DNA from: Blastocatellia bacterium
GTDB lineage: Bacteria; Acidobacteriota; Blastocatellia; UBA7656
Direction: 5' to 3'
Assembly (NCBI GenBank): GCA_963765495.1
Contig: CAVXWP010000009.1
Location: 832,001-896,000 of the forward strand
Length of the DNA stretch: 64,000 nt
The translations under genes and the position numbers were made by a program. Positions 56,139 to 60,188 of the stretch are shown here, one piece after another; within the stretch, counting starts at the first letter, position 1; each line of letters starts with the position of its first letter. The notes beneath the pieces are model-generated. The model was not told the origin of the DNA. It did no database searches and saw only the letters and a list, made by a program, of their open reading frames with translations.

Positions 56139-56957
56139 CTATCCCCTCTCGGCTCGAAACAGACCCGCCTCGCGCTGGTTCAATCCGATTTTTTCGCCTG
56201 GATTCCAAATCTTGAAAGACATCCATACTCCAAAGCAAAACAATGCTATAGATCCGTATTGAGCTGCCGTCAGTCCCCAATAACGCAAATCGGCACCCGG
56301 AACATTTGCGATTCTGAGAAAGTCTAAGCCAAAGCGAGCCGGGGCATAGATAATCGAGACGACTGCCAGATAAGCGCCCTGCCGCGCTTTCCATTTATGA
56401 AGGATAAGGATTGCCGGGAAGAGCACAAAAAGAGTCAACAGGAACTCATAAAAACCGGGATTGTGACGTGAGCCTCCGGGATAGTTGAAGGCAAGGAAAA
56501 AAGTCGATTCCCGGCCGATATGATCGTGGGCGATTGTGCATCCCAACCGCCCGAAGATCCATCCTACAACCAGTCCCTGCAATATTATGTCGGCCTGCAA
56601 TAACCAGGGCTTCTTAAGACGCCCGAAGTATACGCTCAGACCGATCAGGGCACCGAGGAAACCACCAAAAGAGCTCATACCCTTCCAGAACCTGGCAAGA
56701 ACAATAGCTCCTTCCTGACTGAGTAATTCAGGATGATAAAATAGGATCTCGACTATATGCGACCCGATGAAACCGGCCACCGTGGCCCAAACCACGGCAT
56801 TCCTCATCTCTTTTCGCTCGATACCGGCTTCTTCGGCTCGACGGTAAATCAGGTGGCCTCCGACAAGCACTCCGACGGCAACGAGTATGCTGAAGGGGTG
56901 GATTGAGAGTGTACCGATCAGGTGTATCTCTGGGATTCGATAGTATGGGATCATCAT
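56139..56957 (-). CDS. Prolipoprotein diacylglyceryl transferase (Lgt) paralog
   Basis: GMSSFGG, GRLGC, RHNPGFYE, RFGLDFLR, GLTAAQ; several canonical residues differ. Confidence 0.8.
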   Translation of the reverse strand: MMIPYYRIPEIHLIGTLSIHPFSILVAVGVLVGGHLIYRRAEEAGIERKEMRNAVVWATVAGFIGSHIVEILFYHPELLSQEGAIVLARFWKGMSSFGGFLGALIGLSVYFGRLKKPWLLQADIILQGLVVGWIFGRLGCTIAHDHIGRESTFFLAFNYPGGSRHNPGFYEFLLTLFVLFPAILILHKWKARQGAYLAVVSIIYAPARFGLDFLRIANVPGADLRYWGLTAAQYGSIALFCFGVWMSFKIWNPGEKIGLNQREAGLFRAERG

Positions 56958-56971
56958 CCTTTGCCGATCAA

Positions 56972-57472
56972 TCACTCTTTCTTTAGGTTCTTATATGAGC
57001 GACGCCACTCGCCCTTAGCAATCCCGCGCTCCCATTCCACCAACTGGGCACGCATACTGTTTCTTTTATCTCGCGGGTCGGGATAAAAAGGCTTATCGCT
57101 CCAGGCCACCTCTACCCTCATCGTGGTTGCCTCATGAATGGGAAGCGTCTCGATTTTAGGTTCATACTCTCTTTCGCTCGCGGCCATTCTTGTCAGGAAT
57201 CGGGGCAGAGATAATGAAATCACGGTTTGTCCCTTGGGGTCTACGGATGTAAAACGTGGTCGATTGAAGTTTGACACATGCGGCTTTTCAGCCAGCCCTC
57301 TATCGGTCAAAAGCACGGTCAGCGCCTTTGTGGCGCTATCGTATTTCAAGCCTCGCACACTGGCATACGCATGCAAGGTTCTGTCAGAGGTATTACGAAT
57401 TTCGACTTTGACTATAAGATTTTGGCCATCGTCGTGAAATTCAATGTTGCCGACTTCGATTTCACCTTTCAT
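56972..57472 (-). CDS. Hypothetical beta-rich (Ig-like) protein
   Basis: VKVEIRNTSDR pattern; overlaps the upstream gene end. Confidence 0.7.
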   Translation of the reverse strand: MKGEIEVGNIEFHDDGQNLIVKVEIRNTSDRTLHAYASVRGLKYDSATKALTVLLTDRGLAEKPHVSNFNRPRFTSVDPKGQTVISLSLPRFLTRMAASEREYEPKIETLPIHEATTMRVEVAWSDKPFYPDPRDKRNSMRAQLVEWERGIAKGEWRRSYKNLKKE

Positions 57473-58916
57473 AATTAAATCCCTTCGGGAAGAACCCGGC
57501 ATCAATAAGTAAAGCGATTACTCTCTCGTCCAAAAGCAGATGCTCCGCGAGACGACGACCGAATTGAAAACGCGCATCATCGCTGCAAAGCAAGGCTTTC
57601 TTTAAGAAGTCAAGCTCTTGAGCGATAGCATATTTTGATAGCGTCTTCCAAATATCGGTCAGAGGCATTCGAGCGCCCCATTGATCGAACCTGGCGGCCA
57701 GTCGCTTGCCGATTTCAGCGCTGTCATACGCGTCGTTTCGCCATATCATAGCAGCGACATAGATTTCTATTGTGTCCCTGAGTGCCCATGTAATATAGGG
57801 GCTTGTGCTGGCACGCTCATTCAATATCCGCCACAATTCGTCTAGCGAAGGATCAACAAGCATCGATTCATCTCGCATACGGCTCAACAGGATCTCAAGC
57901 TTTCTCAGTTCATCCGAGTTAAGCAGCAGAAGTTCCGGAGAAGTTTGCAACCCCGCTTCAAATCTCATTCCAAGCTCTTTTGGGCTGCATCCATTCATAG
58001 TGTAGTCTTGAATGAGATTGAGGCACAGCGTCAGCGGTTTGACAAAAAACAATTCGACGAGTCGCGTAAGGTCGCCTGAACGCCCCATCAATTGGCAGAC
58101 CTCCGGGCTGAAGCCGTAATAATCGTAATGAAGATGTTCAAAGAAATCAAAACCCACATCCGAGCGACGGAGAAATCTATCGCGCACCTGGCGGAGTGAA
58201 TTGACTTCCGAGGAGTAAACCGAACCGGATGCGATGCTGGCCACGATACAGCAATTTGTCGGGCATCCGGGGTCGCCGCAATGATCGGTCACATCTCGGA
58301 GAGGAATGCCTAACTGAGTGCGCATATCGTTTTCGTCAACCTCGGCAGCCATCTCTTCCGGGGATGCCCCGCATGCCGAGGGCGGGGTCAGAGAGAGACT
58401 ACTGTTAGTCGCCTGACGAAACGAATGCGAAAGCTCGTGATAGAGAATTGCGGGGCTGGGATTGGGGGCATCATAATTGCCGCTCGCTTGACCTTTAACA
58501 CAGTTGGTTCCCCCGCCTGATTCATAAAGCACGACGATTGAGGTTGTCGGATTGAGCACGGTGCCACCAAAGGAAAACCCCGGAGGCAGTGAGGTGCCGC
58601 CTATGGTTGACAGTAATTCCCCATCATTCAGGGCAAACGAGCCGTTACTTGCCACGATGATGATATCCACATTTTGCGGATTCAAGCCGAAATTTGTATT
58701 CACCAGATTACTGAGCCTCGTCGGACAAGGCCCGGTTGCAGTATTCAAGGTGTAGGTAACCTGGATCAGGTCCGAGGGCGCGGGCTGCGGGTTCTCTCCG
58801 TAATTAGCATCGGTGTTAGCGACATTGCCGATGTCCATAAGGTTCATACTTGCGTTTCCGGGCTGTACCGTGCCCGTCCCGAGGGTTCCGTTATCGTTTT
58901 GTATGAAAAGCGTCAT
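57462..58916 (-). CDS. HEXXH zinc metalloprotease (M91/NleD-like) fused to a CFI-box domain and a helical C-terminus
   Basis: ILYHELSHSF...ENDMRTQLGIPLR; CCIVASIASGS..S.EV..LRQVRDRFL...G..F...YY.FSP. Confidence 0.7.
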   Translation of the reverse strand: MTLFIQNDNGTLGTGTVQPGNASMNLMDIGNVANTDANYGENPQPAPSDLIQVTYTLNTATGPCPTRLSNLVNTNFGLNPQNVDIIIVASNGSFALNDGELLSTIGGTSLPPGFSFGGTVLNPTTSIVVLYESGGGTNCVKGQASGNYDAPNPSPAILYHELSHSFRQATNSSLSLTPPSACGASPEEMAAEVDENDMRTQLGIPLRDVTDHCGDPGCPTNCCIVASIASGSVYSSEVNSLRQVRDRFLRRSDVGFDFFEHLHYDYYGFSPEVCQLMGRSGDLTRLVELFFVKPLTLCLNLIQDYTMNGCSPKELGMRFEAGLQTSPELLLLNSDELRKLEILLSRMRDESMLVDPSLDELWRILNERASTSPYITWALRDTIEIYVAAMIWRNDAYDSAEIGKRLAARFDQWGARMPLTDIWKTLSKYAIAQELDFLKKALLCSDDARFQFGRRLAEHLLLDERVIALLIDAGFFPKGFNYER

Positions 58917-59107
58917 GACATTTATTCCTTTTTCTGTGCGCTCCGGCAGGCAATCGCTGATCAGCAGTGTAGCCTATCGGCAACGCAGAGAGCATAGAGC
59001 CAGTATCGGGCTGATTTCCCGACCGACACTTGACCGGGAAATCAGTTCTGTTTCGCCGTTATCGCGCAAATAGCGCGACACTGATGTCTTTTGCCTAGAC
59101 ACCCCTA

Positions 59108-59584
59108 TCAGTTCAGGAAGGTCGCCGACAGAGTGCCGGACGAATCTCCTGTTATAGATAGAGTGTGAGTCGTGCCGGGTGTCAGCGCCTTGGTCAATGT
59201 CACCGTAGGCTGGCTTCCGCCTGATAACGCCTGGATTTCGATAGACCAGCCCGCATCTGCGAGATTGACTACATTTTCGGTCTTGGTGCCGGTTCCCTCA
59301 ATATTTATTAAGAAGGATGTTTGCGCGCCGGGGTGAAAACACAGATGCTCACCTGTTCCTCGATTGCCGCGAATCTTCAACTGAATCGGCTGGCCGATGG
59401 GTCGTATCGTTGAAAGATTCGCGGTAATAGTGATCGCAGATGCCGCGTTTGTTCCATTTGGGCAGTCTGGTGAAACATCTGGATTCGACGAAGGGCATAC
59501 GCAATTGAACGACACCATTCCAATAGACACCAAACAAACAAACATCAATACTGAACGAACGACAAAACGTCGGATTGATCTCAT
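59108..59584 (-). CDS. Secreted, possibly lipidated, Cys-containing beta-sandwich protein
   Basis: Basic N-region, hydrophobic stretch, then NCVCP; AGGAGGAG RBS. Confidence 0.7.
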   Translation of the reverse strand: MRSIRRFVVRSVLMFVCLVSIGMVSFNCVCPSSNPDVSPDCPNGTNAASAITITANLSTIRPIGQPIQLKIRGNRGTGEHLCFHPGAQTSFLINIEGTGTKTENVVNLADAGWSIEIQALSGGSQPTVTLTKALTPGTTHTLSITGDSSGTLSATFLN

Positions 59585-59612
59585 TATTCTCCTCCTCCGC
59601 ACAGATATAGGT

Positions 59613-60188
59613 CTATTTCGGCGGCTCCTGTGGTTTTCTCGGATCTAGAGGTTTGTACTCAGGTACTCTGGGATCGTAAGGCTTGTAATCGGGTTCGCGG
59701 CAAGGCTCGTAGCAATGCTCCGGCTCCGGCTCCTTCTCCGGGCAGCACTTGTCCAATCTGGCCTGAAGCTCCCTTCGTTTGAGCACTTCGACAGTCTCTG
59801 TTCCGTAAACAAGCTCGAATGTTTCTTTGATCTGTTGCAGAGAACCATCCATTGAGGTTTGTAATGCCACTTGCTTGTCGAGACGATGGAGCATACGACA
59901 TAGCACATCGGCGATATTGGCCAGCCAGCAAATCATCGTATCATTTTGCTGACGATTGTAATCGAGCAGATTATTGGTTGCCTTCTGCTGGTCTATAATG
60001 GCGGCAAGACCATTAGAGAGGCTTACAAAGCCCGCCTGATTGTTTGCGACTAGAACATTTAGAGTGTTCTTGATATCAGCCGTATCTCCTTTGACCTGAC
60101 CAACTGTGGTGGCAGTATCCTGAGTATTGGTTTGAATCTGATTGAGCGTATTGTTTACCTGATTGGCAATATCAGTAAGACTAGGCAT
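59613..60188 (-). CDS. Asn/Gln-rich coiled-coil protein with Cys pairs and a Pro/Glu/Tyr-rich tail
   Basis: Heptad pattern, ICW...LC, KCCP, HCYEPC; AGGAG RBS. Confidence 0.75.
   Translation of the reverse strand: MPSLTDIANQVNNTLNQIQTNTQDTATTVGQVKGDTADIKNTLNVLVANNQAGFVSLSNGLAAIIDQQKATNNLLDYNRQQNDTMICWLANIADVLCRMLHRLDKQVALQTSMDGSLQQIKETFELVYGTETVEVLKRRELQARLDKCCPEKEPEPEHCYEPCREPDYKPYDPRVPEYKPLDPRKPQEPPK

Follow-up and report, generated by a model that had tools for sequence, protein, structure and literature searches.

What holds five neighbouring genes together is the question raised by this locus. In the window, i.e. the whole stretch of 64,000 nt from a Blastocatellia bacterium that was analysed here, five co-oriented open reading frames (ORFs), named g1 to g5, follow each other head to tail on the minus strand within 56139-60188 (Table 1). 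They encode a coiled-coil protein (g1), a lipoprotein-type protein (g2), a large protein with a zincin-type head and a CFI-box (g3), a small protein (g4) and a paralog of Lgt (g5). An annotation made without database searches, hereafter the sequence-only reading, had taken the five genes as one unit, a surface or extracellular apparatus provided with a private Lgt. The comparison of related loci gives another answer, since the conserved unit is g1-g3-g4, three genes and not five.

Relatives of g3 amount to at least 99 non-self cluster representatives, with 30-64% identity and a length of 440-550 aa for nearly all of them. The neighbourhood of g3 was compared in 122 loci, 42 from species-representative genomes and 80 from metagenomes. 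Six-frame hidden Markov model (HMM) searches detected g1 in 98 and g4 in 94 of these 122 loci, and when at least 1300 nt were available on both sides of g3, both genes were present in 51 loci out of 52, the remaining one carrying g4 only. For g1-g3-g4, this co-occurrence rules out a chance neighbourhood. The gene order is usually g1-g3-g4, and g3-g4-g1 in one clade. By contrast with the five-gene unit proposed earlier, g2 was found in three of the 122 loci (L050, L059 and L067) and an Lgt-family gene in none of them with the Lgt HMM, 68 loci extending at least 900 nt beyond g4. The flanks of the cassette are otherwise unrelated, as shown by 148 Pfam families of which none occurs in more than 3 of the 131 ORFs scanned in 18 loci (131 of 136 ORFs were used, four very long and one short ORF being dropped).

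According to the record titles, the g3 loci come from at least seven phyla, namely Acidobacteriota, Actinomycetota, Myxococcota, Pseudomonadota (alpha, beta and gamma), Gemmatimonadota, Ignavibacteriota and Chloroflexota, and the family is met mostly in soil and environmental bacteria. It is rare, with g3 in one genome out of 101 (the source genome and 100 relatives) and g1 in two of 401 genomes of the phylum. In the g3 tree (FastTree) the phyla are interleaved, which fits a horizontal spread. Two full-length, divergent g3 paralogs were found in each of six loci, and L029 and L059 each combine a single g1 with repeats of the whole g3-g4 pair behind it, a pattern of cognate enzyme-blocker pairs. 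Two g3 paralogs also characterise a betaproteobacterial subgroup of the cassette (L033-L036 and L041, Rugamonas and related records), whose conserved flanking genes of ~490, 596 and 197 aa gave no Pfam hit. The g3 homolog of Paraliomyxa miuraensis (P0053) is named 'site-specific integrase' by one source, probably a misannotation in view of its full-length alignment with the g3 family.

All the motifs listed in g3 by the sequence-only reading are present, namely HELSH (160-164), ENDMRTQLGIPLR, CCIVASIASGS, LRQVRDRFL and YYGFSP, and they occupy invariant or nearly invariant columns of the family alignments. Residues H160, E161, H164, E188, R199, R207, H212 and C222 are invariant among 92 sequences, and E188 would be the third zinc ligand. 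As also stated in that reading, g3 has no signal peptide; no transmembrane (TM)-like segment was seen in it either, the best 19-residue Kyte-Doolittle mean being 1.34. The Peptidase_M91 profile (PF14891) scores 16 bits on g3 (E 0.016), under its cut-off of 25, and a precomputed PF14891 hit exists in the homologs P0029, P0036, P0037, P0064, P0098 and P0221. The CFI_box_CTERM profile (NF041770, cut-off 40) matches residues 223-291 with 37.7 bits by hmmscan and 41.7 bits in a six-frame search of the genome. The CFI-box of g3 is internal and not C-terminal, being followed by a helical tail of ~190 residues up to position 484. In the window its motif opens with CC and not with CF, and one clade of the family shows the literal CFIVSA. 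A flexible linker precedes the CFI-box Cys, an invariant residue whose upstream neighbours are not lipobox-like.

The AlphaFold2 (AF2) model of g3, obtained with the 92-sequence alignment, reached a predicted local distance difference test (pLDDT) value of 92.7 and a predicted template modelling (pTM) score of 0.77. In this model, an alpha/beta head formed by residues 1 to ~220 is joined by a Gly/Cys-rich linker to residues 224-484, which are all-helical and open with the CFI-box. A Foldseek search of this model against PDB and BFVD returned no match at E <= 0.001, and a profile search of g3 against PDB sequences no meaningful match. In the exhaustive VIA-align search, residues 1-235 were superposed on the catalytic domains of botulinum-type light chains with Z values of 8.1-10.9, the best being 6f47_A (Z 10.9, root-mean-square deviation 3.3, 167 aligned residues). 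Z reached 8 or more for fifteen chains, fourteen from botulinum neurotoxin (BoNT) or BoNT-like proteases and one from the NTNH protein of serotype X. Further matches of the head were GtgA (Z 7.7), anthrax LF (Z 6.9) and NleC (Z 6.1), then Pro-Pro endopeptidases. As the M91/NleD proteases have been described as remote homologs of the BoNT light chain (bioRxiv 10.1101/220806), the M91 hint and the fold result agree. For the helical tail, no convincing structural match was obtained with VIA-align and no usable hit in the ESM Atlas. Taken together, the CFI profile, the model and the fold match support the view, already proposed from the motifs, of g3 as an M27/M91-type zincin fused to a CFI-box and a helical domain, and the protein is presumably an active protease.

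The second protein of the cassette, g4, was modelled as an Ig-like beta sandwich (pLDDT 90.1). Foldseek against PDB gave weak and generic Ig-like matches only, and the g4 profile found no PDB sequence below E 0.05. When g3 and g4 were modelled together, the interaction prediction score from aligned errors (ipSAE) reached 0.81 (0.82, 0.79 and 0.81 in the three runs), and the best of three controls 0.00. The mark of the tool is passed by 58 of 80 solved complexes and by 2 of 110 mismatched pairs, a calibration which holds only roughly here, the complex having been predicted from our own unpaired alignments. The contacts agreed between runs by at least 90%, with a partner pLDDT of at least 81. 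On the g3 side the interface comprises the catalytic site (160-161, 164, 168, 187-188, 191), the strand 119-131 and residues 212-216, and on the g4 side residues 49-54, 70-84, 101-116 and 142-154. Because H160, E161, H164 and E188 are all included, the prediction places g4 over the active-site cleft, in the manner of a substrate or an inhibitor. The model thus predicts that g4 binds g3 and covers its active site, and g4 would inhibit the enzyme. This is in agreement with the earlier suggestion that the 166-aa gene, as g4 was then delimited, encodes an immunity protein or an adaptor.

From its sequence, the third protein, g1, would be a coiled-coil stalk in which the number of heptads varies and which ends in a Cys/Pro-rich part. 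Its invariant residues are C87, C97, C148, C149, P150 and C163, with CCPP..PEPC.EPC as the C-terminal motif. Its N-terminal half varies by multiples of seven, with 72, 79, 86 or 93 residues ahead of the first invariant Cys, and 52 sequences of 70 are in register. Against PDB sequences, the g1 profile matched only heptad-repeat regions of class I fusion proteins and trimeric coiled coils (best E 2e-4); a homology to class I fusion proteins was rejected, these weak matches being read as coiled-coil composition. The ESM Atlas returned unnamed clusters only. With PADLOC-DB 2.0.0, g1 gave weak coiled-coil matches to ZorA (E 0.0011) and GajA (E 0.0033) and g2 to g5 none, and no meaningful family hit was obtained for g1, g2 and g4 in Pfam, NCBIfam, PADLOC and PHROGs. 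As an obligatory partner of g3 and g4, g1 would be an adaptor, a scaffold or a target. A hydrophobic N-terminus was found in none of 70 g1 and none of 57 g4 sequences. Since these are lacking, and since g3 has no TM-like segment, the surface or extracellular apparatus proposed by the sequence-only reading is not supported.

The CFI-box itself extends far beyond this cassette. A 74-position profile made from the CFI-box of g3 retrieved 6577 representative proteins at E <= 0.001, the best 150 of which mostly share the architecture of g3. When the CFI-box region alone served as query in a word-based search, only the g3 family came back. Ten CFI-box proteins with other lengths or positions of the domain were scanned against Pfam. 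LodA-type L-lysine oxidase domains were found ahead of the CFI-box in P0340 and P0333 (with an Ig domain also in P0340), a papain-family protease head in P0323, retropepsin-like domains in P0311 and a weak M91 hit in P0313; P0351 gave only a sub-threshold hit to DUF6324, and the remaining four gave no Pfam hit. No signal peptide was seen on P0311, P0323 and P0340, and the P0333 record does not begin with Met and is apparently cut at its N-terminus. A helical tail of ~120 aa follows the CFI-box in P0311, P0333 and P0340. From these sequences, the CFI-box and its tail look like a constant module under interchangeable degradative heads. No paper mentioning the CFI-box domain or its motif was found in the literature. 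The source genome encodes another CFI-box protein, of 1205 aa and of surface type (G000:C16; L141 8364-11981); besides an internal CFI-box, it has an N-terminal anchor, a region of Ig-like/He_PIG type, a hydrophobic segment and beta-propeller-type repeats. Neither g1 nor g4 lies near its gene, and it is unrelated to the cassette.

The two genes of the locus outside the conserved unit were also considered. The g5 product matches Pfam LGT (PF01790) with 113.1 bits for a cut-off of 24.9, over profile positions 5-238 of 240, and scores 71.3 bits against the TIGR00544 equivalog, under the cut-off of 118.9. It is not the only Lgt of the genome, as had been presumed: a better-scoring copy (179.4 bits) lies on another contig at G000:C4:312392-313135 and groups with the Lgts of relatives in line with their kinship, so that this copy and the Lgt tree rule out g5 as the housekeeping enzyme. 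In that tree g5 falls in a separate clade (support 100/100), the members of which are 42-65% identical to it, come from metagenome-assembled genomes of Binatia, Smithella/Syntrophaceae, Bradymonadales, Bdellovibrionales and Acidobacteria, and are named Lgt or 'Lgt family protein'. Neither 60 relatives (all matches at most 34% identical) nor, at E <= 1e-30, 400 other genomes of the phylum yielded a g5-type Lgt. The separate clade and the absence from relatives indicate that g5 is a foreign second Lgt.

Compared with the E. coli Lgt, g5 keeps R143, G145, G154, Y235, R239 and R246; Y26 is replaced by F, N146 by C, E151 by D and E243 by D, and H103 is absent. The residues described as essential in E. 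coli Lgt are Y26, H103, R143, N146, G154 and R239 (PMC13251419), and N146C and E151C/D are reported to occur in distant Lgts (PMC13251419, mBio 2026). H103 is likewise missing from the housekeeping Lgt of this genome, where position 146 is also Cys; GRLGC, one of the altered signatures listed earlier for g5, occurs in this housekeeping copy too and does not set g5 apart. Of five genomes that carry g3, four lack a g5-type Lgt. Paraliomyxa, the fifth, has Lgt paralogs at other places, and none of g1, g3 and g4 lies near two of these paralogs; a 'CCPP' ORF near one Paraliomyxa Lgt paralog was discarded as an out-of-frame artefact.

Lgt acts at the membrane on exported lipobox proteins, and g2 has a hydrophobic N-terminus. 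At its lipobox position the window has the non-canonical SFNC; the aligned Cys is invariant, and the two full-length homologs of g2 are canonical there (LPGC in L067 and VSGC in L059). Most plausibly g2 would be a lipoprotein, and g5 an Lgt that came with it and lipidates it. About 1,300 genomes are reported to have two lgt copies, and plasmid lgt copies to travel with lipoprotein genes (PMC13251419).

The five genes lie, as noted earlier, in DNA of higher AT content; the shift is modest, the guanine-cytosine (GC) content being 49.5% in the island and 52.9% in the window, i.e. ~2 standard deviations under the mean of 4.8-kb windows and the 8th lowest of 119 such windows. The spacing is 10 nt between g1 and g2 and 191 nt between g2 and g3, g3 and g4 overlap, and g4 and g5 overlap by 4 nt (GTGA); the start of g5 is likely the MIPYY found in its homologs, 16-19 nt beyond the overlap. 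An island of ~4.8 kb is bracketed by a 300-nt direct repeat made of ~55 nt of murJ upstream sequence and the first ~80 murJ codons. Of the two murJ copies previously seen on either side, one is indeed an intact gene, but the other is a 5' fragment held within this repeat. The identity of the repeat is near-perfect over ~250 nt and then decays, and beyond it the murJ fragment contains a 29-nt piece (60817-60845) resembling a more internal part of murJ (55322-55350). To judge from these sequences, the repeat and the 29-nt piece look like a recombination scar, possibly with donor murJ sequence. The murJ orthologs of nine same-family relatives are 64-76% identical, and with a closest MurJ at most 76% identical the empty-site comparison had no usable partner; the flanking hydrolase occurs in none of the same nine genomes, and its sole match among 15 relatives is 38% identical and belongs to a same-order genome. 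Because this comparison failed, the island borders are drawn from the direct repeat alone.

A metagenome contig covers 60678-61305 without any difference (DNA run X1, soil metagenome). X1, whose contigs are identical to the window, is probably the source sample and hence no independent evidence. It is the one DNA run listed as containing the window, and no RNA sequencing run is listed. The promoter and terminator scan recovered a murJ promoter-like site in both repeat copies and nothing else, and Rfam gave no match in 54000-62000.

Table 1. Genes and repeat copies of the island and of its murJ borders (window positions).
Feature	Position	Strand	Description
g1	59613-60188	-	191 aa; Cys-rich coiled-coil protein; core cassette member
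g2	59108-59602	-	164 aa; exported, lipoprotein-type; lineage-specific accessory gene
g3	57462-58916	-	484 aa; predicted zincin, Gly/Cys linker, CFI-box and helical tail
g4	56972-57505	-	177 aa from a TTG start, or 166 aa from an internal ATG; predicted Ig-like beta sandwich
g5	56139-56975	-	278 aa; Lgt paralog (xenolog); lineage-specific accessory gene
Direct repeat copy 1	55738-56037		murJ upstream region and first ~80 codons of intact murJ
Direct repeat copy 2	60849-61148		94% identical to copy 1; holds the murJ 5' fragment
Intact murJ	54343-55998	-	Downstream flank of the island; Pfam MurJ 405 bits
murJ 5' fragment	60768-61109	-	113 codons; upstream of the island

We propose that the locus is a mobile conflict module of the toxin-immunity kind, a reading to which we give about an even chance. 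The ~4.8-kb island would have been acquired horizontally, which belongs to the same joint reading and shares its even chance, and its core would be the conserved, self-contained g1-g3-g4 cassette. In this cassette, g3 would act as an active cytoplasmic zinc endopeptidase of the BoNT light chain/NleD (M27/M91) fold type and would be toxic. The g4 protein would lie across its cleft, contacting both His and the Glu of HExxH as well as E188 and pairing with an edge strand as a substrate would; it would be the cognate blocker of g3, inhibitor or immunity protein, or, less likely, a substrate. The third obligatory partner would be g1, and the CFI-box with its tail would be the constant part, combined with other degradative heads in other proteins. 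Here the cassette would have gained two accessory genes, the lipoprotein gene g2 with its degenerate lipobox and the foreign Lgt gene g5, the product of which would lipidate g2, as reported for lgt copies on mobile elements. Our confidence in the anatomy and recurrence, where gene content, distribution, folds and an in-silico interface were observed, is much higher than in the function.

Several points weigh against this proposal. Neither the cassette nor its flanks revealed a signal peptide, a known trafficking domain or any machinery for secretion or delivery, which leaves a delivered toxin without a visible route. Searches of viral contigs and plasmids returned no relative of g3, and the PADLOC and PHROGs results did not rise above coiled-coil noise. 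The structural neighbours of g4 are generic Ig-like folds (best Z 7.0), its match to a known inhibitor, the intracellular proteinase inhibitor of B. subtilis (3isy), is weak (Foldseek E 0.021), the complex score expresses the confidence of the model itself, and instead of inhibiting g3, g4 could serve it as a substrate or chaperone. The g5-g2 link is a co-location in one genome, and L059 has g2 and no Lgt within 1.2 kb downstream of g4. In addition, three of the five closest g3 relatives (P0004, P0005 and P0006, 56-58% identity) share source and longest-contig sizes (5506, 6186 and 29362 nt) with P0121, P0109 and P0102, close relatives of g5 (57-65% identity) in the Lgt subclade of the window; these are three coincidences among 99 (g3) and 119 (g5) non-self matches listed, and the two sets of proteins may be encoded on the same contigs.

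Lipid-related genes next to g1 are a further point of this kind. Among the 401 genomes, a g1-like gene was found in one other, G443; it is 26% identical to g1 and lies between an Lgt paralog and two genes for LamG-type lipoproteins with FVGC lipoboxes (G443:C4; L144 6783-9860). This cluster contains neither g3 nor g4, and the housekeeping Lgt of G443 is located elsewhere. The G443 paralog is 22% identical to g5 and forms its own long branch, which indicates an independent recruitment. Moreover, in 12 of the 122 loci g1 is followed by a ~1100-aa AMP-binding and NAD_binding_4 protein of the fatty-acyl-AMP ligase/reductase type, with a PAP2 family gene in seven of the twelve. These loci (L030, L031, L039, L040, L109, L110, L113, L115, L117 and L119, with L104 also among the twelve) number 10 after removal of one duplicate and one near-duplicate; their record titles name Candidatus Angelobacter, Acetobacteraceae, an alphaproteobacterium and Nitrosospira. 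They all lie in one g3 clade (24 rows, support 100) and count as one evolutionary event, and G443 is a single genome. With lipid-related genes next to g1 in three arrangements, it is suggestive, and not decisive, that lipid chemistry bears on the core proteins; the toxin-immunity proposal does not account for the recurrence of these enzymes.

A rival of the toxin-immunity proposal is that the five genes form one surface or extracellular apparatus, in which the private Lgt lipidates an atypical Cys, either the CFI-box Cys of g3 freed by autoproteolysis or the g1 cluster, and thereby anchors the protein in the membrane. The tight linkage of g5 to g4 inside a repeat-bounded island, its foreign origin, the shared contig sizes of P0004-P0006, the G443 cluster, the ligase/reductase loci with or without PAP2 and the invariant CFI-box Cys behind its flexible linker are all consistent with it. 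We nevertheless consider this apparatus quite unlikely: the Lgt HMM hit none of the 122 g3 loci, 68 of which extend at least 900 nt beyond g4, a g5-type Lgt is missing from four of the five genomes with g3, g1 and g4 lack a hydrophobic N-terminus and g3 a TM-like segment, the CFI-box Cys lacks a lipobox-like context, and the Lgt paralog of G443 is only 22% identical to g5 and stands on a branch of its own. The lipid enzymes could also be explained by a maturation of g1: made as a precursor, it would have its Cys/Pro-rich C-terminus processed by g3 and, where lipid enzymes exist, lipidated, with g4 as a recognition or chaperone subunit. The constant co-encoding of g1 with g3, the invariant Cys cluster, the three arrangements of lipid enzymes and the G443 g1-like gene that stands beside Lgt and lipoproteins without g3 or g4 point in this direction. 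However, some loci combine duplicated g3-g4 pairs with a single g1, the predicted occupant of the cleft is g4 and not g1 (g3-g4 being the pair modelled), and a protein of ~190 aa with a long structured coiled coil is unlike the known ribosomal peptide precursors, so that we hold this maturation to be very unlikely. A related idea, in which g1 is membrane-anchored by a lipid on its CCPP/Cys cluster (through an Lgt paralog or the ligase-reductase and PAP2), g3 is its dedicated protease and g4 the gatekeeper, receives even less credence from us. If it were true, lipid-anchored g1 and g3 would be a purely bacterial counterpart of the pair formed by a lipid-anchored coiled-coil protein and a light-chain-type protease, and would hint at the origin of this protease lineage.

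An intracellular role is a further alternative. In an abortive-infection or stress module, g4 would keep g3 inactive until a trigger, for example a phage sensed via g1 or the g3 tail, frees it to cleave essential host or phage proteins. The small, self-contained, rare, patchy and horizontally moved cassette, the lack of an export signal in its three proteins and the predicted occlusion of the active site by g4 are in agreement with this possibility. We regard it as unlikely, as the PADLOC hits are coiled-coil noise only, the flanks show no enrichment in defence genes (Uma2, rve and HTH_3 each in 2 of 131 ORFs) and viral contigs contain no relatives, whereas tandem g3-g4 pairs and interchangeable heads fit polymorphic toxins better.

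In typical polymorphic toxins, the constant part is N-terminal and the variable part C-terminal. The cassette resembles these toxin/immunity systems and the protease-inhibitor pairs by an enzyme gene followed by that of a small partner predicted to occlude the active site, by tandem duplication in some loci and by a constant module with different enzyme heads. It differs from them by its reversed order, with the constant part at the C-terminus and the variable head at the N-terminus, by the absence of a known delivery domain or secretion system and by a third, obligatory coiled-coil gene. With the M91 (NleD), M27, NleC and GtgA proteases, g3 shares the HExxH motif, a downstream invariant Glu and the head fold. 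Unlike the M91 and M27 proteases, it remains below the Pfam M91 cut-off and without a PDB sequence match, has neither a translocation or receptor domain nor a type III secretion context, is fused to a CFI-box and helical tail, and is co-encoded with g1 and g4. With CFI-box-CTERM proteins it has in common the Cys-led motif followed by R..RD..L and YY.FSP, but the domain starts with CC and is internal, ahead of the ~190-residue tail. As for the mobile second lgt copies, g5 is likewise an extra, horizontally acquired gene next to a lipoprotein-type gene in an island, and its N146C and E151D changes are of the kind reported for distant Lgts (PMC13251419). It differs in being chromosomal, with no conjugation genes in the cassette, a degenerate lipobox (SFNC) in g2 and a sub-equivalog TIGR00544 score.

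What these comparisons define is a cassette of three genes, rare but widely spread, over at least seven bacterial phyla. The sequence-only reading knew of no system with the make-up of this locus, and no description of the cassette was found in the literature. The uncharacterised CFI-box would gain a first testable context, that of a constant module with different degradative heads, and g3 would be a non-pathogen, apparently intracellular relative of the M27/M91 proteases with its own predicted proteinaceous blocker, which bears on the control and the evolution of this protease fold. The idea of a private Lgt has to be corrected into that of a lineage-specific add-on, most simply arriving with its lipoprotein, and the lipid enzymes recurring next to g1 constitute a concrete and testable lead.

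Some features of the surroundings of the island can be added. The source genome has a second, divergent MurJ-family gene, 35% identical, at G000:C8:663524-664963, and in same-order relatives two murJ-like genes are adjacent. On the 3' side of murJ, away from the island, the window carries at 51204-54241 an ABC ATPase, a HlyD-type periplasmic adaptor-like protein and a TetR-like regulator, as identified from their translations, which look like ordinary efflux genes.

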